Assembly (NCBI GenBank): GCA_043228905.1 | Contig: JBHGNT010000002.1 | Coordinates: forward strand, 12,276,001-12,340,000 | DNA: 64,000 bases | Direction of reading: 5' to 3' | DNA from: Azolla caroliniana | Lineage: Eukaryota; Plantae; Polypodiophyta | Shown: in pieces, positions 1,485 through 31,480 of the stretch | How positions within the stretch are numbered: the first letter of the stretch is position 1 | Layout: every line of letters begins with the position of its first letter | Translations under genes and position numbers: made by a program | The notes under the pieces: model-generated | Told to the model about the DNA's origin: nothing | The model's input: only the letters and a program-made list of their open reading frames with translations | The model's database searches: none

Positions 1485-1775
1485 ATGATGCGAAAGATAT
1501 ATGTATTATATGAAGGAAGATATACAACAGTAGTTAGAAGGCTTAAGACTGGCGTTGAACCGATTTGGTTCGAACTAATGCCTTGCGCCTCCTTTTATAG
1601 TGTCTTCAGGAATACTCCTGAAGTTTCTAGAATGTTCCAGAGAAATCTGGAATATACATCAATTTCCCAATAAAACCTAAATGAAAATAATGTCCTTCAA
1701 ATTACAATTCATAACCTAATGGTAAAGTCTCGACCCGTGTAACAAAAGGTTATGGGTTCGAGTCTAGTTATGACA
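1304..1775 (-). repeat. 5' LTR (472 bp) of the Tcn1-like element
   Basis: Inverted 5-bp termini TGTCA/TGACA, TATAAAA on the minus strand at 1599-1593, and an (AG)n tract. Related LTR pieces occur at 42780-42949 and 61118-61284. Confidence 0.85.
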
Positions 1776-1819
1776 CCCTCCAAACCGGGGACAAAGGAGA
1801 AACGAGCAACAGTCACAAG

Positions 1820-4800: not shown

Positions 4801-5886
4801 CCAACCCACGGAGCAGGCCCGGATGCCACACCACCCGGTCTTGCCTTTGGAACCGTTTCAAAAGTGGGGTTTGGACTTTGTCGGTCCCTTCAAGCCACCG
4901 GCAACGCAAAGTTCCTGTTCGAGTGCATATGGTGCCGATATGGATGCCCGATCGAGCTTATAAGTGACCAAGGAGGACATTTTCTCGGGCAGGTAGTAGA
5001 AAGCCTGACGTCATTTTACGCGGTGGTACATAAAAGGAGTACTCCCTACTACCCTCAAGCCAATGGACTAGCGGAATCAACGAACAAAACTCTGCAGAAC
5101 ATCCTACGAAAAATTGTCAACGAGAACCGGACCGACTGGGATAGGAAATTGCAAAGCGCGCTATGGGCGTACCGAACAACGTACAAAACCAGCATCCGGA
5201 CAACCCCGTTCCGACTAGCATTCGGTTTAGAAGCGGTCATGCCGGTAGAGTTCCAGATCCCCAGCTTACGGATCCAGGTAAAGGAGCGCTTAAGTGAGAA
5301 GGAGTCCGAACGAATCCGGCTGGCGACGTTGTTGGAATTAGAAGAAAACCGAATAGCCAGCTTACTACAACTCGAACTGGAGCAAAGGAGGAGAAAAGCT
5401 TTCGTGGACCGACACCGACGTAGCAACGAAAAGGAGTTCGAAGTCGGGAAACCAGTGCTACTATTCCAGACACGGATGGGGAACATGCCGGGAAAGTTGC
5501 AGTTTCGGTGGACCGGACTGTTCTGGATCACCAAGGAGTACAATGGGTCGTATCAGCTCGGCACGTTATCTGGAGATGTCATCGGTAAGTGGGCAAATGG
5601 GTTTCGGCTAAAGCCGTATAAGGGAAATATGCCAGCCAACCCGTTCAAGCAAAACCCGGAAATCCGGCAAGATGAGGAACCGACACCGACAGACACTGCT
5701 GAAGATATTCGGACCGAGGAAGAACCGACACCGATACTGACAAAGACTATCCCGGAAAACCGACAGAAGGATCCGGTATCAACGCAACCGACCCGAACAA
5801 ATCAGGGGGGACCAGAAGATGATGTGGTCCATACAAAAAAAAAAAAAAAAAAAAAAAGACGTGGGCAAAATCGACGCGAATCATAG
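1820..5886 (+). pseudogene. pol: Gag-Pol polyprotein of element A with premature stops and an integrase deletion/frameshift
   Basis: ORFs 1820, 2882 and 3443 share one frame, separated by TGA (2852) and TAG (3431). About 100 bp is missing near 4905 relative to element B (the RYVILAMDYCTKWVEA segment is absent). Confidence 0.9.
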
Positions 5887-6031
5887 TAGTGATGGGGAGA
5901 TCACAAGAGGTGGGAGCGCCACCATGCAACGAAGAGGCGCCATGCATTAAAGAAGGACGTGCGCGTACTTGCTATTTAAAGCATGGAACGTGGGCACTCA
6001 CACGCGGCAAACAAGAAAGGACATACTAATT

Positions 6032-9000
6032 ATGGCGGGAGAAGAACATGCGCGGGAAACGAAAAAGGGCGGCTCGAGGCAAGAACCACTATATAAGACA
6101 CAGGCCTGCGAAGGACTTAATTTTTATGAATTTTCCTACACACAGGCGCAGAAGCACAGAAGAGCGATCCGACGCACAGCGCACACACAGCCCGATCCCG
6201 AACAACAGACAGCAGAAGAAGAATTCGAAACAATGGTACTGTCGGAGGAGGCACGCCAATGGATGAGGGAGAACGGGTTAAAAGGATTGCTGCGGATCGC
6301 CGACGCTCCACCACACGCAGAACCAGAGCAGGCGGCAGCATCGATTGATTTATCAGAAATCACGGAAGGAGCGGTGCAGGCGCTCACGGGGATAAAAGCA
6401 GGAGGACTTCAAACAATCGAAAACCCTTCAAGTGAAATCCTGTTCGAATATTTCGGTGAGTATTCTATCAGCAGCAAGGCGTACCGAACACAGGGCAGAG
6501 AGAACCTGCTATTCGGAGAAGTGGCCCGCGCCATGATGGAATACGGATTCGTGAATCCTCGTCCCCCGGCCATAGCCAGGTACCGGGCAGCGTTCTTAAT
6601 TGCAGCGTACGAAGGATTACAAGTAGACTGGCTCCATTTCATAACCGAAGGATTGAAGGAGGCCATCAAGAACCTGGTGGAAGGAAAACAGCCATGGGCC
6701 GGGATAGCACAATGGCTAACGGTGTTAGTCCCACCGGTACTCCCCATCACACAAAAGAAAAGAGGTCGGCAGGAGACGACGCCGAAAAAGGTCACAAAGC
6801 GCCGACAAATCCTGGAGAAACACACCCCCGGATGGACCCAGCAAGAAGCAGAACAGCGGGGGGAAGGACCATCCCGACAGCAACAGGAACCGGCAACAAA
6901 GGCAAAACCAGCAGGAAAAGGCAAAGGGAAATCGGCCGAGGAGGAACCGGTAGCGCTCAAACCAATCCATATAACGCTGCGACGGCCGGAACCGGAACCA
7001 GAGGTCTTTATACAAAAGGTCCGTCTGGTAGCCGCACCGGAGGAGGAAGCTGAAACAGAAGACTCATCCGAACCACTGGTAAGACTCCCAGCAAGACAAG
7101 GTCGGGAGAGACGGGCGAAAGGACCGGCTCCACCAATTGACAAAACTCAGCAGAGGGCACAAGGACCACCTCCAGTAGCCGAGGCGGAAGTAGTACCGGA
7201 ACCCGTACCGAGGGAAGCAGCACCGACACCGGTTGTGCCGGACTTCAGAGAGCCGGTCATCCCAGAGAAGAAGAATGAACAAGCGCCGGAGCCAGAGAAA
7301 AGGCCGGAAAAACAGCCTGAGTTAAGTGAGCAAGGCCACCCCGACACAGGAAGCACAAAGCCACAATGGCTGAGATGGCTTTCGGAGCAGTTATCGGGAG
7401 TAGCGGACCAGTTAGAGGAAGAAGAAACGTGTAGGCAACAGCTAACGCATACAACAACTCAGGAGTTGGTCGCGCTCCGAACACAGATCGAGGAAATGCA
7501 AGGGGAGCTGTTGCAGGCAAGGGAAGGAATTCAACAAGCACAAGTTGTCACCGAGCCAGTCGGGACAACAAGGAAGCAACCAGAACCAGAACCAGAACCG
7601 GTAGCCTTGCAAACCGGCCCTGAGACCGAAAAAATAATAGAAACCTTACGAGAGGAGTTAAAAGCTTAGGAGGCATTAAGGGAAAGAGAAAGGGAGCAGC
7701 GGAAAGTGGTGGAGGATGACAGACGAAAAATGGAAGAAGGCCTCCGGAAAGGCCGAGCCACTAATGACCGACTGCAAGAAGAAAAAGAGAAGCTGCAAAA
7801 GGAGAAGGACCGACTGCGTCGACATGCCGAGCAGGAGATAGAACGACTGCAGGAAGAACTCCGACAACAGAAGGACCGGGACGACCGGTTAAGAGCTCAG
7901 GCAAACCGACGCCTGAAGCAGAAGACGGAGGACTTCGACCGTCTCTACCGAGATCACAAGCAGGCCGAGTCGGACAACAAGAAACGGGCAGCAGACTACG
8001 ACCGGCAAATAGAGAAGCTGAAAGAACAGCTCAAAGAGACCCGATTAGACCTAGCTAAGGCAATGGATGAGGTCAGTGCCAAAAAGGAAGCATTGTCGGC
8101 GGAAATAGCCCAAGCGACGGAAAGAAGGAAGGAATTAGAGGCGCTAAGGCGGGAAAAGCTGGATCTGACCAAGATCAGGAATGAAGAAAAGGAAAGATCG
8201 ACCTTCACGATCAGCAAACTGCAAAGTACCTATGAAAAGCAGAAAGCGGATTACGAGGCCCAGGCTCAGATAATGGCCGACATTATAAAACGGGCAAGGA
8301 AGGAAAAGCAAGAAGCTTATGCGCATGCTAAGGCGGGGGTTGACCGGATCAAGCTCATCATGTCAGGTTGGAGTACCCGAGCTCAGGCAAGCATCAACGA
8401 AAGTACGGAAAAGCTATGGAAGGAGTGGTCACAACAGGCAGCCGAGTTGTAGACACTCCGAGCGGATGCCGAGAATCGGAGGAAGACCGGTGACAAGTTC
8501 TACAAGATGGATGAAGAAAGTATCGTCGCCATTCGGGAAGAATTGTCGGAGGATTTCTACGCTTTAGCGGAAGAACATCTCAAAGAAATCCGAGGGTTGG
8601 TAGAGAGGTTGGATGACGGGCAGCTCGCAACTCAGTTGGAGTTAGAGAAATACGAGCAGGACCGGTTACGACAGGAAGCCAAGGGAAGAACGACGCCAAT
8701 CACTATAAGTGAGGGAGAGCGACCGGCTGAAGTTGAACCAACCGACACCGAACAACCCCGACGAGGAATACCCGAAGAAGAACTTCCGTTCGAAGGAGAA
8801 GAAGAAGAGCAGGAGCAGACCGATGCCGGAGAAGAAGAAGAGCTGAGACCGGAAGACACCAGAGCAGAGGAAGAAGGCGTACCGAGCCGACCAGTCGAGA
8901 CCGGAGAAAGCGACACTGGTAACAGAACAGAGCCTGGAACAGAGGGAGAACAGGAAGAACCCGGACGAAGCGATGAGGAAGCACCGGCACCACAGAATCA

Positions 9001-9145
9001 AGCAGAGCCGGAGCAGCAAATTTTTACGGAACAGCCAACCCAACCGGAGGTCGGAGACCAGGCAGGCAAGGAACAGGAATTGGAGGAAGAAGCACCACTT
9101 GACACCATCGAGCAGAGTGTGCTCGATATTTTGGAGGAAGAATGA
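6032..9145 (+). pseudogene. Extra ORF (ORF3, ~1037 aa) of element A: globular N-terminal domain, basic NLS-like patch, Pro/Glu linker, long coiled coil, acidic tail
   Basis: ORFs 5969, 7706 and 8507 are one frame broken by two TAG codons (7667, 8450) that are Gln codons in the element B homolog. ATG at 6032. Confidence 0.8.
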
Positions 9146-9195
9146 GGCCGGGAGTGGATTCGAAGTGCAAGGCACTTTCCCACGGGCATGCCATG

Positions 9196-9586
9196 TGTTG
9201 GCCGGTCAGAAGAGCAAGGACAAGTGGGAAGGCGGAGTCGGATCGGATAATAGGAAGTAAATAATAGTAGAATTATTATTCGGAGGGACGGATCCGGTAC
9301 AGTTGTACCGATCCGGATCCAGACCGATTCGGATGTCGGTTGCCTAAGCGCATCGATTGTAACCTTGCCGGATGCCTATAAAAGGATCCGATGATTTGTA
9401 AAAGGTTTAGACGGAAGTAATACAAAAGTAATTATTGCGTGTTTATCTGTATCTTTGTATTGTTTACCGTCTGTGCTTAATTGTAATCATCTTACGCGTG
9501 TAACCTAGCATCCAATCCCTACCACCCCTTTGGAGAAGTGTCGGATAGACACCTGTGTTGAGGCTAGTCCGGCCAAGCAGACAACA
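9196..9586 (+). repeat. 3' LTR of element A
   Basis: TGTTGG...ACAACA termini with an internal TATAAAAGGA; aligns by eye with LTRs 46406-46875 and 59851-60316. Confidence 0.8.
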
Positions 9587-11262
9587 TAAAGCCACAAGAC
9601 TTTCACATCCCTTGGAAATTCCCAACAATATGTGGGAAAGTATATCCATGGATTTTATTGTTAGCCTTCCTCGCACCCAAAAAGACCATGAAGCCATTTG
9701 GGTTGTGGTTGATCGACTAACTAAAATGGCCAGATTTATTGCTACTAAAACCAGGGTAACAACTCTTGAATTGGCTTACCAATTCGTTGACGAGTTATTT
9801 CGTTTTTATGGGTTACCGATGGATATCATGAGTGATTGAGATCCAAAGTTTACTAGCGACTTTTGGACGCAAGTCTTTAAGAAGTTAGAAACTAAATTGA
9901 GCATGAGCTCCACGGATCATCCTCAATCCGATGGATAGACAAAACGAGTAAATCAAATTATTGAGGACATACTTTGTGCATGTGTTGGTATAAAACCAAC
10001 AAAATGGGAACGTTATCTCCCAATTTTGGAGTTTTCTTATAACAGCTCCAAGCATACATCGACGGGATATAGTCCTTTTATGTTGATGTATGGTTTTCAG
10101 GCATGAGCCCTGATTGATGTTAATATACATCATGATGAGTTGTGAAGTACACAAAACTTTCTTCGGGATATGCAAGATATGTTGCATATTGCATGAGAGA
10201 ATATAAAAATAATAGAGCGTGTTTTTATGCCGATCATAATAGGCAACCTCGTGTATACAACCCTGGACAAAAGGTATTTTTAAATGTACCTCACAATTCT
10301 AAGACATTGTCTACGGGTAAGTGTGCTATGTTAGCCCCACGGTTTTGTGGAACTTTTACAGTCCTCAAACCCATCGGTTCATCATCCAATTGTCTCAGTC
10401 TTCTTAATGGCGTTGAAATCCATTCATTTTTTCATGTAAGTTGTCTAGAAGAACTTCTAGGTTCTCGCGACAATACAGTTACAACTAAAACTCTGGTTAC
10501 TTCAAAAGAATTATCTTCCAAACCACATGTACCAGAAATAATTTTCGATGTTAAAAAAAAAATTGTGTTCTAAAATAATCCGAGAATTCAAAATTAAATG
10601 GATGGATAAATCTATCAAAGATGCCGCATGGGAATACGAAAATACTCTTAGAACTAACTTCCCTAACTTTCCATTGCAAGAGTGCAATGTTTTAAAGAGG
10701 GGGGAGTATGTTATGGTCATGACCATAAAATATCCCATGGTGAGAATTTACCGTCGTATTCTATACACGTCCACGATAAAGTGTGAGGGTTAAACGAGAG
10801 TGTAAAGAAGACCTTTTGGTGGTGGGACCCTGGACTGTTTAAGTGTTGGTCCCGGGGCACCTATCCTGGCGCATTCTTGCTTGCTTGCTTGCTTGCTTGC
10901 TGAACCCGGGTTGGCGTTAGCTAACCGCCTACCAAACTTGACCTGCTTTCATCTTGGGGCCTGACCCGCTTTATTCCTCGTCGTTGAGGGCGTGCTTGCT
11001 TGCTTGTTGGGGCACTCGACCACAATAAAGGGAGAGAAGCTTTCACGACTTCCCACGGTGTGGCCATTACTCTCAAAGGGTAAGCTGGTTTCACCGTTAT
11101 GAGCCAGTTATTGAAAAAGCGTTCGCACGCTTGTGGGGTGAAAGGCCAGAGGAGGACTCCTTTTCCCTCTTCTTGTGGTCCTTCGGACTTCAACAAAGGA
11201 ACGGCGGAGTCGTAGCTCTTTGATTCACCCCTAACCACGAGTCATCCCCGTATTTTGCCACA
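9587..11262 (+). mobile_element. Degenerate Ty3/gypsy chromovirus 3' end (integrase, chromodomain remnant, PPT, 3' LTR from 10709); target of element A; right end approximate
   Basis: HPLEIP..WESISMDFIVSLP..VVDRLTKMA integrase motifs, an FKIKWMD..AAWE chromodomain-like tail, and PPT aagaggggggag followed by TGTTA at 10709. Confidence 0.7.
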
Positions 11263-14242
11263 TACGTGAGTTCAGTCCTCCAAGGCCTCTGTGGAGAGCT
11301 CAATTCAACTTGCTCGTGGCTAGATCAATCGGTTTCGGGTCAAATAGATTACTTTTAATCCTCGGGATTGAGACTGCATGAGGCTGCACCAGAAAGTTCA
11401 TCAGGAGATCCCAGTCAACAATGAGTTGTCAGTTTCATTTGCTAGAGCATTTGCATATGAGTACTGCAAAACAACGAAGGAATCCAGAGACCCTGAAATG
11501 TATAGGGTAGCTTGGGCAGTCTATGGTGAGGCATCGGTAAAAAGATGTTGAAAGATGGGGACCTTGGCACAAAAAATAAACAGATTTTGGAGCATGGCAG
11601 TTGTTGATGCAACTGCCGACTCCCAGCAAGACCGGGGGCATACACCACACCGACACCCAAGGAAAGCCAATGTCGATGATACAGGTGAGACATTGGTTAG
11701 CTATATGCTAAAAAATGTCCATGAAGCCTGTGAGACATTGACATTTTTTAAGACTGATTTAGAGAAAGCCACAATGGCTTCTGCAATGGAGAGCAAAGTT
11801 ACTTCCGTTGTTACAACGATTAGAAATAAGATTCAGGTAACTATTGTTTTGCTGGTATGTGATTGTGTTATAAATAACTTTAAGGGTAAAATGTGCTAAT
11901 CAAGCATTATTTGGAATAGGTTGCGCAACAAGAGCTTGAATTAGAGGGGCCACTGGATCCCCAACGTAAAATACAACTGCAAATAGAGATCCAGGTTCTT
12001 TCAATGAACCTGGACCTTCTAGGTGTAAATACTGTTGCAGATTACAATTTGGATAAGCTTCAAGTAAGTTAACGATTCCTGACCAAAGTTGGTGTATCTT
12101 TCAACAACAGGAATAATTAATCGGTAAATTTCTCTGTTGCGTTGAAGGAACAATACATTCATCAAGAACAGGTAGTTAGCTGCCTTAAGAAGCAGCTACA
12201 TTTTGTGGAGGGAATGGTAAGGACCAGACAGGATTTGGACCTGAACATTCTTGCTCCCTTACCAAATGAAGGAGAACCAGAAAATGATTTATTGACAGTT
12301 CAAACACGTTGCATCGCTTGCGGGTTAGGTGTGGAGGACAAAATTGCGTCTTTGTTGGTTCACCTACAACCATGCAACCACACATACCATCTGCTTTGTT
12401 TTCAACATGCCTGTCAAATTGTTGCATTCTGTTTGGGAGATTGCAGTACAGCTCTACCAAATGAGTGGAGAAAACTAACAGGTATACCATACTATAGCTA
12501 ATAAGCTTAGTCTTTTCTAATTAGCTAAGCCGTAAAAAGTATGGAAACTATTTTGTTGCTATCGTTGTAGCTAATTAGCTACTACCATAGTTGATTAAAG
12601 CAGTTAATAGCTATCCTATTAGTTAATTAGCTACTGCCATAGTTTACTACATTAGTTAATTAGCTAAGTGGCAGCTAGTTAGCTACTAGCTAATTAGCTA
12701 TCCTACTGGCAACTAGTTAGCTACTACCTAATTAGCTACTCATAGCTCTAATTAGCTAGCACCATAGTTGTGTAAAGTAGCTAATTAGCTATCCTACTAG
12801 CTAATTAGCTACTGGCAACTAATTAGCTATCCTAGTAGCTAATTAGCTATCCTACTAGCTAATTAGCTATCCTACTAGCTAATTAGCTATTGCCATAGTT
12901 GTGTAAAGTAGCTAATAAGCTATCCTAGTAGCTAATTAGCTACTGGCAACTAATTAGCTATCCTAGTAGCTAATTAGCTATGGTACTAGCTAATTAGCTA
13001 GTACCATACTTGTGTAAAAAAGCTAATTAGCTATCCTACTAGCTAATTAGCTATGGTACTAGCTAATTAGCTAGTACCATACTTGTGTAAAAAAGCTAAT
13101 TAGCTATCCTACTAGCTAATTAGCTAGTACCATACTTGTGTAAAAAAGCTAATTAGCTATCCTACTAGCTAATTAGCTACTGGCAACTAATTCGCTATCC
13201 TACTAGCTAATTAGCTATCCTATTAGCTAATTAGCTACTGGCAGCTAATTAGCTATCCTAGTAGCTAATAAGCTATCCTAGCTACTACATAGTTGAGAAA
13301 GTAGCTAATTAGCTATCCTAGCTACTACCATAGTTGAGTAAAGTAGCTAATTAGCTATCCTAGCTACTACCATAGTTGAGTAAAGTAGCTAATTAGCTAT
13401 CCTAGCTACTACCATAGTTAGTAAAGTAGCTAATTAGCTATCCTAGCTACTACCATAGTTGAGTAAAGTAGCTAATTAGCTATCCTAGCTACTACCATAG
13501 TTAGTAAAGTAACTAATTAGCTATCCTAGCTACTACCATAGTTAGTAAAGTAGCTAATTAGTTATCCTAGCTACTACCATAGTTGAGTAAAGTAGCTAAT
13601 TAGCTATCGTGCTAGCTAATTAGCTATCCTAATTAGCTATCGTACTAGCTAATTAGCTATCGTACTAGCAAATTAGCTATCCTAAATAACTGCCATGTTA
13701 TTGTAGAATCTTGTGGATTAAGGACGGCACATGATGTGTCTGGTGCTGATGACGCTGCAACAGATGAGGATACTGCTGCCAACGTGGCTGAAAGTAAGAG
13801 TCCTGCTATCACATCTCCTTCAAATCAGCACCACCCTATTCTTTTGGAACAATGTACTGAATTAGGCAACGATGTGAAATGCCATGAAATAGTGGAAACA
13901 ACATGTAAAACTGAGGTTCACAACAACAGTGTTTATGAACACTTGATGCAACATTTCTTCGAACCTCAAGACCTTGATTCCACCCCACCGAGCCCAACTA
14001 CTAAAAATGTCCAAACAGATCCCTCTGTACTTGAAAAGCTAGTTCAAGAAACGGCTGATGTGCAATTAGTTGTTGAGGCGATGGGAAGGTTGTCGGAGGA
14101 GGACACACTTGCGCATTGGGTGAAAGAAGCAAGGCTAAATGGGCAACCGGCCAGAAAAAGGCTGAAGAAGGGGCCACGATCGGGAACAAGACCAGTTACT
14201 TGGTCAAGGGGCCAAGACGTAGTGGAGCAAAATACTGTTTAG
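11263..14242 (+). pseudogene. Spliced gene for a coiled-coil/RING-H2 finger protein (putative E3 ligase) with lesions; probable transposon cargo
   Basis: RING-H2-like CIAC..CNHTYHLLC..CLGDC in ORF 12142-12501. GT-AG introns 11837-11919 (phase 0) and 12482-13706 (phase 1) both keep the frame (KLT-E-SCGLRTAHDVSGADD). The middle junction near 12064-12110 is uncertain and premature stops are present. Confidence 0.6.
12500..13690. repeat. Satellite array built on the palindrome TAGCTAATTAGCTA (20-bp and ~41-bp units) filling an intron
   Basis: Dozens of agctaattagctatcctact-type monomers and ctactaccatagttgagtaaagtagctaattagctatcctag-type units. Confidence 0.95.
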
Positions 14243-14466
14243 TTGGATATGATTGTTAGCTTAGGGATTTTGCTAGGGTTTTATGAAGTTTTATTATCCT
14301 GTTGGACAAGTAAAACCTCAGATTGGTTGTTGCTTGATCCACATTATGTAATGGAACTCTATGATGTTTTCCCAAGATAATTTGAAGAGTGTTGTTCTAT
14401 GACTGAAACTCTTTGATGTTCAGGATGTTGTTTTGTGAGACTATTAGTTACTTTGTGAGTGTGAAT

Positions 14467-15467
14467 ATGTTGGTGTTTTCTGATGTTGCAGAGTCTAAAG
14501 GGTTTGATTCTATTGCTCGTAAGGCCAATGGCAGTGTGGATACTGTTGATGTTGCGGCATGTTTAAGGGCCCCATCTTGAAAGTAGATGTAGCAACTAAC
14601 ACAAGTGATTTGGTCACACAAGTTGATCAAGCATGTTGCACAGATGACTTGGTGTTGCAGGTAGATGCAACATGTGATACCAGTGGACTGATATCAAGCA
14701 GATCAGTAGCTACATGCACCGAGGTAATCCAAGGATTGATAACTAAGTCGACAAAACAAGAGCACCAGAATGTGAAGCCAAGCCCAACATAGTCGACTAG
14801 GGGTTTGAAGAGGAAAAGGACGCCAGTTGTGTCGGCCGAACCTGAGCTGATTGAGATTGATCGTGTCCTACCAGAAAATGGTGTAACAGCGGCTCAGTTT
14901 CAGGAATGGAAACCTAAACCACTAGAAGTCGAAAGAAGAGCCTTGATCTTGGAGCTTGATAAAGTCTTGATGAGTGTGAGATATATGCAGCCAAGGAGGG
15001 ACGCGAATCAGTTTCTAGAGTGGGCTGTGCAATACTTTGATTTGTTTATTTGGAGTGAAAAACCAAAATCAGATGTGTGGAAGTGTTTAGTAAGATTCTT
15101 CCCAAAATGGCGAAGTCGTTTTAAAGGTCAATGGGCACGAGAAAATTGTGAGCAAATGGAAGCTGTAAGATTCAAGAGACTTTCTGATTTTTGGGCTACT
15201 TGGCCTGAATATAATGCCGACAATACATTGATTTTGGATACAGAACATTTCCGGCACTACTTCAATATTCGGAGATGCTGTCTCATTCTACCCGAGGAAA
15301 TGCCTGAACAGTGCCTGGTGCAAACAGTGAGCTGCCAACTAGGTGCATGGTTGTGGACTCCATACCGAGATCGATATGTGGATAATATATGTAGACTCGT
15401 TCCACTGACTAGCAAGAGCTTAGCTGTTTATAGGAGATTTGTAGACATTTCCAATGGTAATTTATAA
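14467..15467 (+). pseudogene. FCP1/NIF (CTD-phosphatase-like, HAD superfamily) domain protein with a substituted catalytic motif; probable transposon cargo
   Basis: ALILELDKVL (DxDxT position), RRDANQFLEW..FDLFIWS and FKRLSDFW..YNADNTLILD match the NIF pattern. ORFs 14559 and 14805 are in frame across a TAG, and KRKR is NLS-like. The 5' start is tentative. Confidence 0.6.
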
Positions 15468-15815
15468 ATATGTAAAGAGATGACATTATTCAATGAAGAA
15501 TTTAATTACTTGTTCCCACTATACTTATCTACTGTGTAATTTGAGGAATATGTTGTAGATTGTTGATTTCATGCTATTGATGACTATTTAGCTATTGACA
15601 GCTAATTAGCTGCATTTGTACAGCTAATTAGCTACTGATGACTATTTCGCTATAACTTATAACTTAAAACTTAACAAAAAAGACATGATTTTATTGAGAA
15701 AGAAGCACAAAAAGCAGACTGTATACAAGAAATTGATTCTCAAACGAATTTATTTAACTGTTTTCGTGAAATACATGTTTGTTTTACAAGAGAACATGGT
15801 AATTGCTACTTGTAG

Positions 15816-17656
15816 CTACAAATTCCATGGCATACTATTGTAAATACATTCATACACATTAGCACCAATAGTGTATAAACCTAAGCAGCTATTGTATTCT
15901 GACATTGGGACGTTGATGCACCTGACCAAATGAGAGTACATGTATGCCGCTGGTTTGTCTTCTAACAGCCTGTACACATATTCGTAGTCATCTAGTTTTG
16001 CATAAAAAATGCCTTCAATGTAGAATGTCCCGGCAGATACAAAATTTCCCCATGCATCTACAATATTCTGCCTTGCACACTGTTTACTAACCGTGAACTT
16101 CAATATATAGAAATCAGCACCCTCTGAATTGCCTTCTTCAGCATTTACAGCGAAGTTATCCCCAACGTTCAGGACATCACTCAAAGTATCTCCAAGTCCC
16201 TCATATGTGAAGTCAGCATTCTGCCCTGTTTCTCCATCAACTGCTTCCTTATCATTCAGAGTGTGATACTCCCAATTCTGAAAGTATGCTTTGTTTAGAC
16301 AATATCTCCAATTCCCAGCACACAATGGAAGCAAAAACAAGTCAATTCTCTAACCGCAATACAATGACCATCCAACCTGGAATAACCGCGAACAGCATGC
16401 AGAGATCGCAATTCGGGAATTCCTTGGCACTCCTAGGTATTCTCCCTATTTACTTCATCTATCTTCACTTCCCAAAATTCACGTTTGATATCTCGGACTT
16501 GCGAGGAATAAACACCTGTTGCACTCGTTGACATATTTGTTCTTAAAAATTCAACTACATGTGATGCACAATTCATGTGCACACCATCTATCTTTAGTTG
16601 TTCATGGGTAAGTGCCCGCTTTATAACAGCCCCTGCACCATCATGTTCACCTTTACCATGGCCAGACCCAAAAAAATTCCATCTCATCTCCAAACCTGTT
16701 ATAGCAGGATACCTCCCCACAAAATAAAATGGACGTCGAGCCTTGAATTGTGACGTAGCTCTGTCAGACCAGACCCAATGTTGAGTAAGCTCCAAACGTT
16801 GAGCTAATAACCACTGCCAATGTAACTTAAAACTGTGTTGGACGAACAAGGTATCATGCTTCTTATCATCGGAAATAAAGAAATGAATTACCTTTTTAAC
16901 ATCACCTGAAACTCGAAAATATGTTATGTGCACAAAAATGGTTACCTGAACTGAACACCAATGCATAGATTGAATTTCATTCTACTGCTTGAAAGTATAA
17001 TTCTCTGTGAAATCTACTACTGAGACTACTACATCATTTGGGAAATCAGATATGGAAGTCTTAAACTGATGGGCTTGCCATGAATAAATGAAGTTGTGTT
17101 TAATGAACTTTCCTAGAGATACTACAAACAGAGACACCAAATCCCTTGGTTTAAGCATCTTCCGAACTAGATCCTTTCTTTTACACACCTTTCCTTCGAA
17201 ATTGGTGTTCACTGACTCAAAGAACTTCACAGAGATCAATATTTCACTACTCAATTCATTTGGACACCACCTAAATCTAGTAGGGCCACAATCTTGACAT
17301 AAACCCATGACACATTTATGAATATGGAAGATAGCGTCAGTTTCTCTCGGACACAATATTGAATCTAATAAATAACTCATGGAAGAGATAACGTGCTCAA
17401 ATGATTTACACTCCTCTTGCGGGCTTGATCGACAGATTGGGCACCCACATGTGCAAACTGTATTAGTTAGGGATGCGCTATGGTGATGTAGTAGATTAAC
17501 AGAGTCCTTCAGGAAACCCATCTGTACATGGTAAATGCAACAACATGTGTATCGATCCTTTAAGCATCTCACAAAGTGTGGCTTAAGAGACTCGAATGTT
17601 CGTAGTTGAACTTTGATAGTTGGATGCATTCGTTTGAACCTAATAAATAAATCGAC
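15816..17656 (-). pseudogene. Sola2-like DDD transposase, degenerate; upstream exons lost
   Basis: Motifs TCCCIYH, CxxGLCQDCG, VVDFTENY, EIQSMHW, ISDDKKHD, WSDRATSQFK, WNFFGSGHGKGEHDGAGAVIKR and RELTCFCFHC. Stops at 16982 and 16433 and a frameshift near 16320. CAG acceptor at 17659-17657. Confidence 0.75.
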
Positions 17657-17689
17657 CTGCGTAATAAAGGGGAATTAGTTATTCTCGTA

Positions 17690-18960
17690 ACTAGCTAACT
17701 ATCCTAGTAGCTAATCAGCTATTCTAGTAGCTAATTAGCTATTCTAGTAGCTTATTAGCTATTCTAGTAGCTTATTAGTTGTTCTAGTAACTAATTAGCT
17801 ATCATGGTAGCTAATTAGCTATTCTAGTAGTTAATTAGCTATCATGGTAGCTATTCTAGTAGCTAATTAGCTATTCTAGTAGCTTATTAGCTATTCTAGT
17901 TGCTTATTAGCTATTCTAGTAGCTTATTAGCTATTCTAGTAGCTAATTAGCTATCATGGTAGCTAATTAGCTGTCCTAGTAGCTAATAAGCTAATTAGCT
18001 GGTCTAGTAGCTAATTAGCTATCATGGTAGCTAATTAGCTGGTCTAGTAGCTAATTAGCTATCATGGTGGCTAATTAGTTGTCCTAGTAGCTAATTAGCT
18101 ATCATGGTAGCTACTTAGCTTTCCTAGTAACTAATTAGCTATCATGGTAGCTAATTAGTTGGTCTAGTAGCTAATTAGCTATCATCGTAGTTAATTAGCT
18201 ATCATGGTGGCTAATTAGCTGGTCTAGTAGCTAATTAGCTATCATGGTAGCTAATTAGCTATCATGGTGGCTAATTAGCTATCCTAGTAGCTAATTAGCT
18301 ATCATGGTAACTAATTAGCTTTCCTAGTAACTAATTAGCTAGTTAGCTTTCCTAGTAGCTAATTAGCTATTCTAGTAGCTTATTAGCTATTCTAGTAGCT
18401 AATTAGCTATTCTAGTAGCTTATTAGCTATTCTAGTAGCTTATTAGCTATTCTAGTAGCTAATTAGCTATCATGGTAGCTAATTACCTGTCCTAGTAGCT
18501 AATAAGCTAATTAGCTGGTCTAGTAGCTAATTAGCTATCATGGTAGCTAATTAGCTGGTCTAGTAGCTAATTAGCTATCATGGTGGCTAATTAGTTGTCC
18601 TAGTAGCTAATTAGCTATCATGGTAGCTACTTAGCTTTCCTAGTAACTAATTAGCTATCATGGTAGCTAATTAGTTGGTCTAGTAGCTAATTAGCTATCA
18701 TGGTAGTTAATTAGCTATCATGGTGGCTAATTAGCTGGTCTAGTAGCTAATTAGCTATCATGGTAGCTAATTAGCTATCATGGTGGCTAATTAGCTATCC
18801 TAGTAGCTAATTAGCTATCATGGTAACTAATTAGCTTTCCTAGTAACTAATTAGCTAATTAGCTTTCCTAGTAGCTAATTAGCTATTCTAGTAGCTAATT
18901 AGCTATTCTAGTAGCTTATTAGCTATTCTAGTAGCTTATTAGCTATTCTAGTAGCTTATT
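17690..18960. repeat. Second TAGCTAATTAGCTA satellite array (20-bp monomers, ~516-bp higher-order duplication) in the inferred transposase intron
   Basis: Monomers agctaattagctattctagt and agctaattagctatcatggt. The variant agctaataagctaattagctggtc occurs at both 17981 and 18497. Confidence 0.95.
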
Positions 18961-19042
18961 GTGGTGGTCCGGGACACATAGCAATCACCTGCCCACATAC
19001 GCCAAAACGACAAGTAAATCAAGTAAGTACTAGTGAGAAAAT

Positions 19043-22000
19043 TGGAGTGGCAAGCTCAACCGGATCCGAATCGGCATCCAGAAGGGTGAGCCGGTGAGTT
19101 GGGGAGCCAGTGAGCTGGATCAAGCAGTAACCGGAAGCCAAGTACCAGCTAGTCTACTAGGGAGTTAATATCTCGTAGTTAGTGTCCAACGCTCATGTGA
19201 GCATTGAAGTACACCATACTTCTATCAGTCCGAATAGACTTGTATAAAAGTGTTCACTAAACACATACGATGTACAAACTGAGTAGTATTTTTTTAATTG
19301 AGTATTTGTGTGCTCTCTCTCTGTCTCTGTCTCTCCCACGTACTGTTAAGCTCTCCATTAAACCTGTTTTCTGCTTTCTGTTTTCTATTGCTTCCACACG
19401 CTATTTGTTTCCACATGATATCAGAGCGCGAGGGTTGAGAACCTCTGCAGCCGACATTCGCTTTCGAAAGAAGAAAACCTAACCTTTGTAAAAAACAAAA
19501 AAAAAACAAATGGATAGAGGAATGGCTAGCTCGCTCCCGGTGAAGAAGCTCGACAGATCCAACTACGCATCTTGGTCATACAAGATGCACCAGTACCTGC
19601 TTGGGCATGGTTACTAGAGCTATGTCGACGGAGCTAACAACACAGCACCTGATGTGGCACACAAGGATTTCTCTGTGTGGGAACAATCGGCAAGCAGAGT
19701 GATGTACTGCTTTGTGTCCAGTGTCAGAGACCAGCTGTTGAGCCACGTTTGAGATGCCAAGACACTGAAAGAGGCTTGGGGAAACTTGAAGAAGGTGTTT
19801 GCCTCAAGCACTACAACCCAAGAGCTGCAACTCCGACAGGAGTTGAGCAATGTCCGACAGAAGGACATGTCGGTGGCTGATTACACGGCCCGAATCAAAG
19901 AGATCTGTGACTCGCTTGCTTGCCTCTATCAATGTCACATTAGAGGAAGACGAGATGGTACAGGTCTATCTTCAGGGCCTGGCGTCTAAGTTTCGAACTT
20001 TCAGGACAGCTATATGTACAAGGGAGAATACGCCGTCATTTTTCGACTTACAGTCGATGCTCCTTGTAGAGGAGAACCACGCCAGTACGTCAACAAGTGC
20101 ACCCATCGACAACCGGATGTTGTACACGGAGGCGGATCGGCCCCGTGGGCGTGTTGGATGAGGCGGGTCGGCACGCAATGGAGGCGGCCGGCAAGGGCAA
20201 GACCGACAACACAAAGACCATGCCGACAACAGTTCTAGGACTTCCACAAGCAGGGGGAGTCAAGGTGACGCCGGAGGCCAGCAAGACAAATCCATCACGG
20301 AATGCTGGTACTATGGCAAAAAGGGCCACAGAGAAAGCGAGTGCTGGAAGAAGCATGCCGATTCGGACAGATCTGGACACGGCAAAACCGGTCGAGAGAG
20401 CTGGCAAAGCTCGCACTACGCGCAAGGATCGAAAGGATCCGGAACCGGGAAGACTGGTAAGGGGCCAGCCTTGGAGATGAAGCACGAGGCAAATTCGATG
20501 AACAAGATCACTTTCAAATAGGAGGAAGTGCGCCGATTCGGAAACATCTGGATCCGGCAAAACCGGTCGGGAGAACCAGCAAAGCTCGCACTACGCGCAA
20601 GGATCAAAAGGATCCGAAACCGGGAAGAATGGGAAGGGGCCAGCCTTGGTGATGAAACATGAGGCTAACTCGATGAAGAAGACCACTTCCAAATCGGACG
20701 AAGTGTGGTACGTTGATTCCGGTGCATCAAATCACATGACGAACCACAAAGAGTGGTTCTCCTTCCTAGAGAAACCAGAACAACCGGGAGTTGTCGAAAG
20801 CGGAGACGACACTCCTCACCCAATCGTGCATATCGGTGATGTCCCTTTGAGCCATGTCGGACAGAGGGGGAAGCTTATGAACGTATTACACATTCCGACT
20901 ATCACGAAGAACCTGGTGTCGGTTGGACAAATCGTCGACCAGGGAATGCAGGTGCGGTTTACGCACCTCACGTGCTTCATCGAGGAGGAGGGCCAGATTA
21001 TTGCGCAAGGGCGCAGAGACAGGAGCATGTTCATCCTCAACACCAATGATGTCAGCACCGCTTTGTTTGCCAAAGGACAGAAGATTGAATCCGACATCGA
21101 TCTTTGGCACAAGCAGATCGGCCACGTCAAATACCAGAGGCTTTAAGACCTACAAACGAAACAAGTTGTTTTCGGTTTGACGAAATTTAGTGGCCGGAAG
21201 GCCCAAGTATGTGAGGCCTGCCAACTCGGGAAGCAACATCGGCTTCCATTCCCCACTGAACGAAACCGTAGTCATAACAAGCTCGACCTTATTCATTCGG
21301 ATGTATGGGGACCGGCACAGAACGTGAGTCTTGGCGGGAGTCGATGCTTCGTCTCCTTCATCGACGACTATAGTCGACACACATGGATCTACCTCATTGA
21401 GCGGAAGAGCGAAGTCTTCGACTGTTTTTGGAACCTCCAGAGCATGGTGGAACGGGAATCGGAGAGGAAGATTAAGTGCCTGCGGTCATATGGCGGAAAA
21501 GAATATTTTTCCGGCCAATTCAACAGTTATCTGCAGCAAACAAGAATTCGGAGAGAGTTCAGCTGCAGATACACACCGGAGCAAAACGGTGTGGCCGAAA
21601 GGAAGAACCGGTCGCTTGTCAACGCGGCAAGGGCAATGCTGGAAGACAAGAGCATGCCCCATTTCTACTGGGCGGAGGTAGTCCGGACGGCCGTCTACGT
21701 CCAAAACCGGATCGGTGACAAGGTGTCCACGCGTGAGCTGTATTTCGGGCGCAAGCCGAATTTGAGACACCTTTGGATTTTTAGCAACATAGCATACGTG
21801 CATGTGTCGAATGAGAAGCGGAGGAAGCTGGATGCAAAATTGGAGAAGTGCATCCTCGTCGGCTACTCACATGAACAAAAGGGGTATAAGTGTTATAACC
21901 CCCGGATGAAGCAGGTCGGAGTTAGCCTCGATGTTGAGTTTGACGAGACGTCATCATGGTATGCCTTACCGGCTCCGACTTCCGACCGCGACCCGATATC

Positions 22001-24954
22001 GGAGGATGAGGCTAGTGAGCCTGAACCAGTCCAGATAGAAGATGATGAATCCGGGATTCAAGAAGAGAATCCGGAATCGTTTCGGTTGAGTGGGCCAAAC
22101 GAGAGACTGGGTCAATCCAACCAATCAGAAGAGGAATCGGCAAGTGGTGAAGACTCTGTCGTGCTCTCCCCGCGCAAGGAACCAAGGAGATGGTTCATGC
22201 ACAAAGAGAAGGGGAAGAAGAAGATGCCGGATTATGAAATCGGTAATGATGAGTCGGATCAGAGCGGATCCAACTCCGGAAAGGAAAATGACGGCTCTTT
22301 GGCACCAAAGAGCGAACCAGCCAAGAAGGGCCTCAAACCGGGTAACAGTGGGTTACGCCGGTCAACCCACCAGAAGGAACCTGTTAAGCGGTACAAGTAC
22401 AATGAGTACATGGCGCATCACTATGCGTACATGACCCAAGTGGCGGAAGTGCGTGAGCCGGAGAGCTACGCAGAAGCGGCAAGGGATGCAAATTGGTGTG
22501 CCGCTATGGAGGAAGAGATGCGGGCACTTGATGCCAACGATACATGGGACCTGGTTGACCCTCCCCATCATAGTAAACCGATCGGATGCAAGTAGGTGTA
22601 CAAGGTAAAGTACAACGTTGACGGTTCAGTTAACCGGTTCAGCGAAGATGACGACGGTTCGTGTGGTGCTGGCGGTTGCTGCGCCAAGGGAGTGGCATCT
22701 TCACCAGATGGACGTGAAGAATGCATTTCCTCAAGGCGATCTAGAAGAAGAGGTCTTTATGAAACAACCTCCTGGTTTTCAGTCGGTGATGAACAAGTCG
22801 GTTGTATGTCGGCTGAAGAAGTCACTTTATGGCCTGAAGCAAGCCCCCTGAACTTGGAATGCAAAGATTACACACCGGTTGCGTAAGTTGGGGTTTGTGG
22901 CATCCAAGTTTGACTCTTCATTGTTCATCCGGCAAGGTTCGGACGGTCCAGTTTGCATCTTGCTGTATGTTGATGATCTAGTCATCACTGGATCGAGACT
23001 CGATGAAATCAACCGAGTCAAGTCCCAACTATCAGACGCATTTGAGAGGAAGGACCTAGGGGACCTTCACTATTTCCTTGGGATCGAGGTGATCCGAACC
23101 CCCGACGGCATATTGCTCTCACAAAGACACTATGTGTTGAATATGATGTACAAGTTCGGCATGACGGAATGTCACCCTATTTCTACACCCTTGGACCGGA
23201 AACAGAAGCTCTGTCCCAACTCCGAACCGGCCTACGATGAGAAACGGTTTCGACAAATTGTCGGAAGCCTTATATATTTGACCATCACCCGACCCGACAT
23301 CAGTTATCCGGTCGGTGTGATTAGTCAATTCATGCAGAAGCCGACCGTCGAGCATCTTCAGTGCGCGCACCGAATACCGCGGTATGTGAGCGGCACGAAG
23401 GACCGGGGACTGTTATACCGGCGAGGTATGACCGAAGAGCTAGTCGGCTACATGGATGCCGACTGGGCCGGCGATGCATCAGATCGTCGTTCCACTTCCG
23501 ACTATATGTTTTCCCTTGGTAGTGCAGCTGTTGCGTGGAGCAGCAAAAAGCAGCCAACAGTGGCTCTGTCGAGCACTGAGGTTGAATACTGGGGCGCTAC
23601 CGTTGCCACCTGTGAAGCCATTTGGCTTCGGCGACTACTGCAAGACCTGCGGATCGAGGTGCCGACCCCAATCCTGATCTACTGCAACAACATAAACAAC
23701 ATGCAGCTCGCCAAGAACCCCGTATTCCATGCTCGCACAAAGCACATCGAAGTGCACTACCACTTCGTGCGTGAGCATGTCCTGAGCAGTGAAGTCGAAC
23801 TTCGGTATGTTCATACAGATTGGCAAGTTGCCAACATCTTCACCAAACCGCTCGGATCGGATAAGTTGCAGCACTTCACCAAAATGCTTGGTGTTCAGCA
23901 TCTCGACGTGCCACACTTGAGGGGGAGAATGGGCAAAGACACCACCGGAACGGGCAAAGGCAAAGAGACTGCTGATTGCACCGATGGGGGAAGAACTGAC
24001 AAGGGGAGAGACAGGAAGAAGAAAGGAGGCGAGTCGACAAAGGAAGTTGACACATCCGAACAAATCGGAACAAGCGGCAGCGGAGGCAGAGTCAAGAAGG
24101 ACAGAGCCGACCGGAAGAAGAAGGCCAAGACCCGGACATGGTCCAATGTGGTGAAGGGCCTGGAACCAGAAGACGAATCGGGAGCAACCGATTCGAACAA
24201 GAGCTGGAACGAATCGGAGACAGCCAATTCGGTTCTACAGAAGGATTCGGAAGAACCGGATCAATTCAAGGCCAAGAGGACAAGAAGGCAGCAAAAGTCG
24301 ACGCCAACACGAAGGGATCAGCGAATCGGCAAAAGCCAAAGTCACAAGAACGAGGGAGTTGAATTGGGCTTGTTGAGTAGACAAGCCGACCAAGGAAGTC
24401 GAGGTGCGCAGGAACATAAGGGTCGCGGAAAACGGGACCAGACCGGACGAGGAGCACGAGCGAGGCGGAGTGACGCTAGAAGGAGCCAGGTGGAAGGACC
24501 GGTTGTCATAGAGACTGACACTACGATCTGACCTCAAATTGAGCTTGAGGGGGGGTGTTGAGTGGCAAGCTCAACCGGAACCGGATCGGCTGAATAAGCC
24601 TGAGCCGGATCGACATCCAGAAGGGTGAGCCGGTGAGCTGGGGAGCCGGTTAGCTGGATCAAGCAGTAATCGGAAGCCAAGTAGCAGCTAGTCTACTAGG
24701 GAGTTAATATCTCGTAGTTAGTGTCAGACGCTCGTGTGAGCATTGAAGTACACTGTACTTCTGTCAGTCCAGATGGACTTGTATAAAAGTGTTCACTGAA
24801 CACATACGATGTACAGACTGAGTAGTATTTTTTGAATTGAGTTTTTGTGTGCTCTCTCTCTGTCTCTGTCTCTCCCTCGTACTGTTAAGCTCTCCATTAA
24901 ACTTGTTTTCTACTTTCTGTTTTCTATTGCTTCCGCACGCTATTTGTTTCTACA
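19043..24954 (+). mobile_element. Full-length Ty1/copia element F with AAAAT target-site duplication
   Basis: LTRs 19043-19415 and 24556-24954; PBS tgatatcagagc (tRNA-iMet-like) at 19416; PPT 24541-24555; AAAAT at 19038-19042 and 24955-24959. Confidence 0.92.
19510..24531 (+). pseudogene. pol: Copia gag-pol of element F (stops, frameshifts, gag duplication, RT deletion)
   Basis: WYVDSGASNHM protease, CEACQLGKQ and HSDVWGP integrase, HQMDVKNAF and LLYVDDL RT, DADWAG..TKHIEVHYHF RNase H. Confidence 0.9.
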
Positions 24955-25149
24955 AAAATTAATTCCAATTTCCCAGTTAGATTATCTATCCCTAGTAGCC
25001 CCACATGTCTAGGCCAATCCAATAGTTTTGAGGTCTTGAGTCAGCTTGATGAAATATTAAATGAATAAGTCCAATCAAAATCGGAGCCATTCGGTTAGAA
25101 AAACCAGAATACGTAAAGTCAGCCCCAAGTAGTGGTTCCATTTTATCGA

Positions 25150-28100
25150 ATCATGTTAGTAGAGTTTTTTCAGCACAACTTGAGCTTAGCACTTCTAGGT
25201 GACATCGAGTTCTTGCATCTGCTCTCTTAGATTCAGGATCCAACTCTTGTTTTATGGACAAAGAATTTGCTTTATCCCAAAAAATCCTATTGAGAAACCT
25301 CCTTTGTCCTGCATCCGTTGTAGTCATTGATGGTCGCCCTATTGCATCTAGGGATATAGTCGAAGAATCCGAGCCAATTCGAGTAGTCCTTGGTAGCTTT
25401 GCTTGTGTGATTTCCTTCAATATAACTAGTAGTCCTGAGCATCCGGTTATCCTTGGTTTCCCTTGGTTTGAGCTTCATAATCCTAAAATTGACTGGAGAA
25501 ATCGAGCAATCAATGATTTCCAGTTGAAACCTGAATGCAACAACTTTGTTACTACCAACCAAGATTCAAAAACTCACCAAATCTCGCTCATATCTCTACA
25601 AAACTTACGAGAAGACAGGCGAACAAATGAAATGTTTGTCTTTGCAGTAACGGCAAATCCATCCTCTAGTTCACAAGGGGCATGTACTCACCTCCCTACT
25701 AAGTACTTGGATTTTGAAGACATCTTCAACAAAACTAAAGCTAGTTCTCTTCTACACCATCGTCCTTATGATTGTCCGATTGATCTACAACCTGGGAAAG
25801 AGCCACCATTGATCACCTTCTAAAGTCAAGGCCCTTCGAGAGTATATAGATGAGCACTTAGCAAATGGATTCATTCGACATTCTAAAAGCCCTACTGGTG
25901 CACCCATATTCTTTGTCAAGAAGAAAGATGGGTCTTTACAATTGGTCATGGATTATCGAGGTTTAAACAAAATCACAGTTCGAAATAGATATGCTATACC
26001 CTTGATATCGAGTTTACTAGAGCGTCTTAGTGGAGCTAAAGTGTTCACAAAGCTAGACCTTCGAGGCGCATATAACCTTGTTCGGATACGTTCAGGAGAC
26101 GAATTGAAGACAACATTTCATACTCGATACGGACATTTCGAGTACATGGTTATGCCTTTTGGTCTCACGAATGTGCCCACAGTTTTTCAACACATGGCGA
26201 ATGATATATTTCGTGACTTCTTGGATTCATTTACCATAGTATATCTTGATGACATCTTGATCTACTCAAAAAGTCAAGAAGAGCATGACACACATGTCCG
26301 CGAAGTCCTCCAACGCTTACGAGAATATGGGCTTTATGCCAAACTCGAGAAATGTAGCTTTGATCAAAACCACGTGGAGTTTCTAGGGTATGTGGTTTCA
26401 CAACAAGGTATATCTATGGATCCATCCAAGGTGCAGACAGTTCTAAATTGGGAAACACCTCGCTCAGTGCGTGATGTTCAGTGTTTCTTAGGATTTGCGA
26501 ATTTTTACCGCAAATTTATCAAGAACTACGCGAACATCGTGATGCCTCTCATGGAGCTTACACGAAAGAACAAGTCGTTCAGATGGAGTTCCAATGCGGT
26601 CAAAGCTTTTGAAAACCTAAAGAGAGCATTCACTTCTGCTCCTATTCTACTTCATGTTGACCTAGAAAAACCCTTTATCATCAAGGCGGATGCGTTTGAT
26701 TTTGCACTAGGAAGTATCTTGTCGCAGGTTGGAGATGACGGAAAACTGCATCCAATTGCTTTCCATTCACACAAATTCGAAGCTGTAGAGATCAATTATG
26801 AGATTCACAACAAAGAGCTCCTAGCCATTATAGACTCGTTTGAACAATGGAGACATCTCTTGGAAGGTTCTCCCCACCAAATCATTGTTTACAATGATCA
26901 TAAAAACCTCACATACTTTCAAAATGCTAGAGGCTTGAGTCGACACCAAGCTTGTTGGGCACAATTCCTGACACATTTTGACTTCCTCATCACATATCAC
27001 CCTGGAGTACAACAAGGAAAGGCAGACGCTCTATGACGACGATCTTATTTGGCGCCACAACCAGGTGAGCCCACATTTGATCATCAAAAGCAAGTCATCC
27101 TGGGGCCTAATCAGTCACGACTATTAACTATTAATGCTTCTAAAGCACCTGAAGATTCCAGGCTCCTTGATTCAATCCGAATAGGTATCATTTCTGTTGA
27201 ATTTGCTCAAGTTGTATTGAATCATATAATTTCCGATTGTGCGTCTTCTTCAAAATCCAAGTATCCTTGTAAAGATTATAACCAGTTTCAATGGAAAAAT
27301 GGGTTACTTTTTCGTAACACTCTTTTGTCCCCAATGGTTCATCTCGACTCCAAGTAATGCAATATTTTCATGACAACCCAATGGCTGATCACTTTGGAAT
27401 CCACAAAACTTTGGAGCTAGTTTCTCGAAACTATTGGTGGCCTCATTTTTGGGATTTTGTTGAGGATTATGTTCGTACTTGTGACGTGTGTTGTCAGTCA
27501 AAGATTCCACGACATTGACCATATGGGTTATTACAGCCATTGCCAGTTCCTACCGGTCCATGGAAATCCATCTCTGTGGACTTTATAACAGATCTTCCAC
27601 TTTCAAAGAGTTTTGACGTTATCCTCATTGTAGTAGATCGATTTACAAAGATGGCGCATTTTCTTCCATGCATGAAAACTATCAACAGTAATGAAACTGC
27701 AGACATCATTATGAAAGAAGTATTTCGGCTTCATGGTCTTCCAAATGACGTCATTAGTGATCGTGGCCCACAATTCATTTCAAAATTCTGGAAACACTTG
27801 CTTGAGATGCTCAAAGTCTCTTGTAAACTTTCTTCAAGCTATCATCCACAAAGTGACGGTCAAACCGAACGCACAAATCAAACTCTAGAACAATATCTTC
27901 AATGTTTCATCAATTATCAATAGGATGATTGGGTGGATTTTTTACACTTTGCAGAGTTTGCATACAATAATTCGGTTCATTCTTCAACATGATATACTCC
28001 ATTTTTTGCAAACATAGGATATCATCCCCGTTGGATGATGATCGAACATCCAGAAATCTCGAAAAATCCTGCCACTAAGGACCGTCTACACCAACTTCAA

Positions 28101-28695
28101 GAAGTTCATGTTGCACTTTCTCACCATTTTGCATACGACGCAAGCCACACACAAGAAGGCTACAGATCGTCATTATCTTGACTCTTCACCAGAGGAACCA
28201 AAATTTCGAATTGGGGATCGCGTACGGCTATTACGATGTAATGTGAAGACCACTAGACCTTGTGATAAGTTGGATTATCAACGACTTGGTCCATTTATTA
28301 TCTCTCATCAAATCAATGATGTTGCATTCCGCCTTGATCTGCCCCCACGCATGCATCTACACCCAGTATTTCATGTCTCATTGTTGGATCCTTACAATGC
28401 TAGTTCCATTCCAAATCGGGTTGTTCTACCCCCACCTCCGATTCAACTTGTTGATGGCCCAGAATTCGAAGTCAAAGCTGTTCTGGACTCCAAGATAGTA
28501 CGTAAGAAGCTTTATTATCTCGTGGACTGGTTAGGTTATACACCTAATGATCGTACTTGGGAACCGGCCAAGAACCTTGGCAATGCCTCCGATTTGGTAG
28601 CTGAATTTCATCGTCAATATCCAAATAAACCAAGCCCCAATTCATGCATTACGACTTGTGGAACTCGTCATCGAAGGAGGGAGATGGTGTCATGA
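25150..28695 (+). pseudogene. pol: Pol of element G ending in a type-I chromodomain
   Basis: ORFs 25254, 25942, 27540 and 28108; C-terminal FEVKAVLDSK..YYLVDWLGYTPNDRTWEP. Confidence 0.9.
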
Positions 28696-29138: not shown

Positions 29139-29199
29139 CTTTCTGTTTTGGTTGTATAAGAACCGACCAAGCTACCTTTGCTATAGTATTATCTACACT

Positions 29200-31443: not shown

Positions 31444-31480
<37 letters not shown>

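Follow-up and report, generated by a model that had tools for sequence, protein, structure and literature searches.

Related systems

Sola2 transposons share the motif order DFAENY..EIQS.HW, SDGAASQFK and F..HGK..DG, give no Pfam match and are several kilobases in size (PMC3627910, PMC10741241), and Sola2 elements with the passenger gene Fanzor1 are known (PMC3627910). We describe here an element resembling them in these features in a 64,000-nt stretch of Azolla caroliniana DNA (contig JBHGNT010000002.1, positions 12,276,001 to 12,340,000; hereafter, the window), in which it is visible from 11372 to 18960, flanked by retrotransposon DNA on both sides. Its passenger differs from those of the described Sola2 elements: it combines an N-terminal domain (N-domain) with RING-like and NIF-like domains, converges on the transposase gene, is predicted to be spliced and is associated with intronic palindrome arrays. 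Sola1-1_Ec32 of Ectocarpus is likewise a large Sola element with an opposite-strand accessory gene, for which a role on the DNA of the element itself has been proposed, but it belongs to Sola1 and its cargo consists of ParB and a DNA methyltransferase rather than RING/NIF domains (PMC12477816).

Sola elements with passengers are thus already known; the element described here is real, and no report of RING/NIF cargo in Sola2 was found in a literature search that had the Repbase entries and the original Sola paper outside its reach. The VANDAL transposons of Arabidopsis are of the MULE type and belong to a superfamily different from Sola2. The anti-silencing VANC proteins that they encode target short tandem-repeated motifs, which differ among related families and lie in introns and other non-coding parts (PMC5735166). 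The element in the window is similar in having a transposon-borne accessory protein and motif arrays in non-coding DNA, with repeats differing among related families, whereas the motifs of VANC21 are arrayed in one orientation and the motif found here is a perfect palindrome (PMC5735166). No VANC-type family was present among the Pfam matches of the cargo segments, which were not aligned directly with VANC sequences. A VANC-like role would fit the anatomy of the arrays, by analogy rather than on functional evidence. We favor the reading, with a probability of about 0.5, that the window holds a dead Sola2-type copy with a spliced accessory gene that likely regulates its own element through these arrays.

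Transposase

Exon 2 of the transposase gene (15816–17656, minus strand) encodes a Cys-rich region, the DDD core and a C-terminal domain, and was delimited by its similarity to P0003 and by its Sola2 motifs. The window transposase is 94% and 89% identical to the intact P0003 (604 aa), the cluster of which has 34 members; 85 transposase homologues were found. The motifs DFTENY, SDRATSQFK and GHGKGEHDG were recovered on the minus strand, where the initial annotation had placed a DDD transposase, and all three catalytic Asp residues are kept in the window copy. In a by-eye comparison, the motif order agreed with that of the Sola2-2_SP and Sola2-2_HM rows of the Repbase Sola2 alignment (PMC3627910, supplement), as the proposed Sola2 fit had implied. 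We therefore classify the transposase as a Sola2-type DDD enzyme from its motif context, the alignment being by eye and the transposase tree containing no Repbase reference. A Pfam scan of the window transposase yielded no match, and an Atlas search with it returned unnamed eukaryotic clusters and DUF7869. Named homologues of the element proteins came from ferns, conifers and Klebsormidium, in line with a seed-free plant as host.

One related locus, L001, has the entire transposase gene, with an exon 1 bearing a helix-turn-helix (HTH), a 1-kb intron full of the same palindrome array as in the window, and exon 2; an HTH is also present in exon 1 of L002. Since the same array separates the HTH exon from exon 2 in L001, the segment 17657–18960 (minus strand) is read as intron 1; its array (array 2, 17673–18960) has a 20-bp unit in about 63 copies.

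Linkage of the accessory gene to the transposase

A scan of metagenome contigs gave 228 relatives, the best 80 of which were taken; 26 redundant ones were set aside, leaving 54. Twenty-four of these loci entered the count: 23 had 1.5 kb or more of downstream sequence, and L008, with 1.2 kb, was admitted for its match. In this sample, drawn from the best 80 of 228 relatives, the cargo module was found in 11 of the 24 loci, always downstream of the transposase and on the opposite strand, and no cargo module was found in 165 kb of upstream sequence (versus 162 kb downstream). Six of the 11 were recognized with a RING profile to which they had not contributed, two with the Pfam NIF model, one by tblastn and two with the N-domain profile only; for nine of the 11, the query or profile was independent of the locus itself. 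Four longest-contig sizes (17573, 12681, 9606 and 10576) are also common to transposase and NIF cluster members, subfamily by subfamily, an indirect indication from at most 15 members listed per cluster. Furthermore, L014 is an internally deleted copy in which the transposase core is joined directly to cargo intron 2.

In the midpoint-rooted transposase tree (40 rows; L014 and L081 were left out for their short matches), each of the two halves of a 32-row clade contained cargo, and NIF was seen only in the 11-row group that includes the window. The remaining group of eight rows had no cargo in the four of four loci with downstream room (L031, L051, L052 and L062). No relative was found in viral contigs. 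Prokaryote genomes gave one partial match, a Sola2-like transposase fragment (40%) in a contig of a bacterial metagenome-assembled genome (L081:860–1518), which is likely to be contamination.

We consider it very probable that the Sola2-type transposase and the accessory gene form a two-part element. The initial annotation had already proposed a single multi-gene element, and this view held: the cargo recurs downstream of transposases, and it is neither a single-copy host gene nor consistently missing from transposase copies elsewhere. An intron-rich host gene for chaperonin-60 does lie 12 kb away, and might suggest that RING and NIF are host genes placed beside a transposon by chance. However, the read depth of the cargo equals that of the transposase, its linkage recurs in relatives, and the deletion in L014 has brought transposase and N-domain together in one copy, so that this explanation is effectively refuted and extremely unlikely.

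Exons and domains of the accessory gene

Five plus-strand exons can be chained with canonical splice sites and matching phases in a sequence-based model. The first visible exon (11372–11836) encodes the end of the N-domain, at 59% identity to L014; its 5' part has been removed by a long terminal repeat (LTR), the end of which abuts the exon at 11372, and the relatives run on upstream in frame according to read laying. It is followed by an exon predicted to be helical or coiled-coil (11920–12063), supported by its AG/GT sites and phases and by matches to L014 and to the Adiantum models P0196 and P0198, and by the exon of the RING-H2-like finger (12148–12481), identified from its translation, phmmer matches and alignment. 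A phase-1 intron (12482–13706) contains palindrome array 1 (about 12550–13690, with a commonest spacing of 20 bp). The linker exon (13707–14242) has a candidate phase-1 donor, GTAAGA at 13794, which would join the last exon (14492–15467), encoding further linker and the FCP1/NIF-like domain and identified from Pfam, its homologues and a fold model. Degenerate copies of the motif lie in the spacer between the converging 3' ends (15573–15653).

The initial annotation described a transposase converging on two cargo genes. The convergence was confirmed; the two plus-strand parts, however, are probably one spliced accessory gene, because the Adiantum nelumboides models P0196 and P0198 each match, in this order, the window regions of the N-domain, the helical/RING part and NIF. 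The search returned 68 Adiantum models, on many scaffolds, 21 of which carry a precomputed PF03031 annotation; all three domains were found in 34 of the 68, with profiles partly built from one of them, so that this count is partly circular. Two separate cargo genes might be envisaged, as the frame of the linker exon has its own stop at 14242 and distant relatives carry the N-domain and RING without NIF. However, a canonical acceptor of compatible phase opens the NIF exon just 250 bp past this stop, and RING and NIF are fused in P0196 and P0198 and in the separate family P0191, which makes two genes an unlikely arrangement for the window. The gene may alternatively have a short isoform. In one presumed-RNA run, the depth was lower over the first cargo intron than over the flanking exons; no joint was displayed, and this run was not used.

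For the RING-H2 protein announced for the plus strand, a C3H2C3-like pattern was recovered at 12148–12481 as C-x2-C-x17-C-x-H-x2-H-x2-C-x10-C-x3-C. All eight ligands are present, but the last pair is unusual (C-x3-C, or C-x4-C in several relatives), the RING-H2 C3H2C3 pattern ending in C-x2-C. The RING exon of the window gave no Pfam match, and its relatives matched zf-RING below the cut-off (E values of 0.001–0.007). It had 24 phmmer matches, and four of the 18 inspected were spurious repeat proteins.

The FCP1/NIF-like domain proposed earlier was supported by a match to PF03031 (31.1 bits, for a cut-off of 21.8), and the NIF exon had 11 homologues, at 51–97% identity. Its predicted structure (pLDDT 81.8) matched Tim50, UBLCP1, CTDNEP1 and SCP1–3 in Foldseek (E values of 2e-7 to 1e-4, TM scores of about 0.55–0.59), so the domain, as modeled, has the FCP1/SCP fold of the HAD phosphatases. 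The phosphatase motif of FCP1/SCP is DxDx(T/V) (PMC5070719). The NIF domain thus resembles the HAD phosphatases FCP1, SCP, Tim50 and UBLCP1 in fold and in its PF03031 match, but differs from them in having ELDKVL at motif I (DLNGxL in distant relatives) and DTE in place of the Asp pair of motif IV. Among the 47 sequences examined, 31 showed motif I, which read ELDKVL in 28 and DxDx(T/V) in none. Because the change at motif I is family-wide, we predict that the NIF domain is a catalytically inactive pseudophosphatase, and the working CTD-phosphatase-like cargo suggested by the initial annotation was not upheld.

The N-domain matched no Pfam family and had no Foldseek match in PDB or BFVD, the best VIA Z score being 3.3. 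Its best model has a pLDDT of 72, the other four of the five being at 60 or below, and demonstrates neither a new fold nor a function. P0184 gave no usable match in Atlas.

Palindrome arrays

The motif TAGCTAATTAGCTA had 85 matches with at most one mismatch, all inside 12568–18945, and none in 100 shuffles. The cargo intron contains 40 copies of its 12-bp core, the transposase intron 60 and the 3' spacer two, mostly at intervals of 20 bp; the core was absent from the exons and from the other 56 kb. The claim of a repeat in or near all of the genes is thus correct for the introns of both genes and for the spacer, but not for the exons. One and the same 14-bp palindrome has multiplied in an intron of each gene, there with different spacers, and also occurs in the 3' spacer; this requires either selection or copying between introns. 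The window arrays are poor in CG and CHG sites; they derive from few founder units, so this is not independent evidence.

Arrays are also found in the relatives, where they lie either in introns of the cargo or in that of the transposase; their units, of 15–224 bp, are unrelated or related only in their core. The arrays at L003:3672–4611, L005:184–496 and L027:2933–3546 share a TAATTA-like core with the window palindrome, and their units differ.

The arrays might alternatively be slippage minisatellites without a binder, with a cargo that acts on host proteins in a sequence-independent way. Among the relatives, the units differ freely in sequence and in length (15–224 bp), and many lack palindromes, and a helical phasing of the array periods, considered as evidence for a binder, was rejected, as it was not significant across 36 arrays (p ~0.06). 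However, the amplification of one 14-bp palindrome in two introns, and its presence in the spacer, speak against this explanation, which we regard as unlikely.

Read depth, selection and decay

The summed contig depth reached about 5,000–93,000 over the linker, NIF and transposase in four of four DNA runs (from three studies). In two DNA runs, the 5' cargo exons had depths of 13,000–92,000, compared with 366–2,479 for the neighboring repeat and 8–57 for single diverged contigs, which the element thus exceeds by a factor of hundreds. Summed contig depth is not copy number, and no contig spans the whole stretch; only the equality of the values and their order of magnitude were read, and these indicate that the element family is high-copy.

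Between subfamilies, the transposase had a dN/dS of 0.30 at a dS of 0.74, and the N-domain had a dN/dS of 0.30 relative to L014. NIF retained 71–75% identity and open frames between subfamilies, whereas a neutral simulation gave 24% identity and about 10 stops; the pairing of the NIF subfamilies rests on shared contig sizes and the tree. These comparisons indicate that the cargo is under purifying selection.

The window copy itself is decayed. Premature stops were found in the cargo (TGA at 11549–11551 and TAG at 14790–14792) and in the transposase (16982–16984 and 16433–16435), with frameshifts at about 14564 in the NIF exon and about 16311 in the transposase. When compared with the relatives, each of the four stops has arisen by C>T or G>A at a CG or CHG site, in agreement with the earlier description of pseudogenized parts with C>T-like stops. 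Of 1843 sites compared with L001, 73 differed in the window copy, and C>T changes affected 8.0% of CG and 8.4% of CHG sites but only 1.2% of CHH sites. This bias may reflect methylation pressure on the window copy.

Possible function

Regulation of its own element by the accessory protein has, in our view, a little less than an even chance of being correct, by analogy with VANC. A dimer of the protein would recognize the two-fold symmetric palindrome through the N-domain, the RING would recruit an E2 or serve as a scaffold, and the inactive NIF domain would bind, rather than hydrolyze, a phosphoprotein such as the RNA polymerase II tail. Together, the RING and NIF effector modules might then help transcription through an otherwise methylated element. 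That such regulation is specifically anti-silencing is doubtful, although the analogy suggests it.

Several observations weigh against the favored reading. The cargo module was absent from 13 of the 24 counted loci, several of which were visibly decayed or invaded, and the shared contig size of 8892 is ambiguous, as L003 has it and lacks NIF. The N-domains of the window group and of the distant group are only weakly connected (hhalign 63%, E 7e-5). The linker frame remains open past the proposed donor and ends, after a basic stretch, at its own stop. Among the fetched loci, RING and NIF occur together only in the window; L009, L048 and L060 have the N-domain and RING, with NIF not found, and L005 and L008 end too soon. 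By strict pattern, the RING and NIF motifs are both kept in only eight of the 68 Adiantum models, which are predictions without genomic context from which the link to a transposase is not visible. The arrays of many relatives have no palindrome, and the N-domain has no match to a known DNA-binding domain, so that a DNA-binding role is assigned to it by elimination. Finally, the arrays could be bound by the transposase instead, through the HTH that it carries.

This last point also bears on another explanation, in which the accessory protein is a transposition cofactor, with the transposase HTH binding the palindromes and the RING controlling transposase turnover or targeting. The HTH in exon 1 of L001 and L002 and the convergent two-gene layout, fixed across distant relatives, are in its favor, and tail-to-tail two-gene DNA transposons of the Harbinger type are known (PMC12477816). 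However, the arrays are intronic and not at the visible ends, with about 4 kb separating one of them from the 3' end of the transposase, and the related transposases without cargo in four of four loci suggest that the gene may be dispensable for cut-and-paste transposition. We therefore consider a cofactor role improbable, if slightly less so than arrays without a binder.

A broader extension of self-directed regulation is that a plant Sola2 lineage evolved a sequence-specific anti-silencing protein, in which a new DNA-binding fold would read family-private intronic arrays, a RING ligase would remove or modify silencing proteins and a pseudophosphatase would dock RNA polymerase II; the NIF-like module may even be an effector shared by unrelated transposon superfamilies in seed-free plants. 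We regard this as speculative, and less probable than an anti-silencing role as such. Transposon-encoded counter-silencing has been characterized in only a few plant families, and a high-copy family with intact members, a candidate protein and a candidate 14-bp target opens the question to experiment in a seed-free plant. If the proposal were correct, a programmable DNA-binder tied to a ubiquitin ligase would offer a new way of changing chromatin at chosen loci. Whether or not the protein counteracts silencing, the fern gene models labeled "hypothetical" probably include dozens of transposon passengers, and their annotation should say so.

Element boundaries and neighboring sequences

The element had been thought to start at 11263, but it is visible only from 11372; positions 11263–11371 correspond to another repeat and an LTR end. 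This flank (10709–11371, plus strand) is a gypsy LTR split by a separate 536-bp repeat (10811–11346), as indicated by 10810>11347 joints and depth steps, with SH3_Tf2-1 upstream. The right part of the 536-bp repeat (11224–11348) had a depth of 400–590 in two presumed-RNA runs, far above that of its flanks. At the right edge, array 2 is fused straight to a gypsy gag zinc-knuckle remnant and the window contains no exon 1 of the transposase, so the right end has been lost by deletion rather than only masked by an insertion. The initial annotation was thus right that both ends are missing at retrotransposon junctions, but not in taking insertion as the sole cause. The window element is a dead copy truncated at both ends, at these junctions.

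The comparison of copies for terminal inverted repeats (TIRs) and target-site duplications (TSDs), called for by the initial annotation, gave nothing convincing. Both ends are missing in the window and no convincing TIR pair was found in related loci; a scan for TIRs plus TSDs at 39 loci yielded only AT-rich or microsatellite pairs resembling chance matches and no convincing TSD, which in Sola2 elements is AT-rich and 4 bp long. In a related family, L037:4108, L045:355 and L048:2332 have one common sharp left boundary, TATTTGCAAGCTA, with unrelated flanks. This boundary is likely to be an element end, at least 16 kb from the cargo start in L048.

The right flank (18961–29140, plus strand) is a chromodomain gypsy element that is truncated at its 5' end, so that it begins within the zinc knuckle of gag, and that hosts a nested copia element (19043–24955; LTRs 92% identical, 5-bp AAAAT duplication). 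Farther to the left, a gypsy element at 1715–9590, which we take to be Tat/Athila-like, has a long extra open reading frame (ORF) region (5951–9145) without a Pfam match; no relationship was found between this ORF and the N-domain. The chaperonin-60 (Cpn60) host gene, about 12 kb from the element, is spliced and intron-rich (31000–35060) and appears alpha-like by eye. The segment 46425–60270 contains LTR pairs nested within each other, with spacings of 13.4 kb and 5.3 kb, and the inner pair delimits a near-intact minus-strand copia element.

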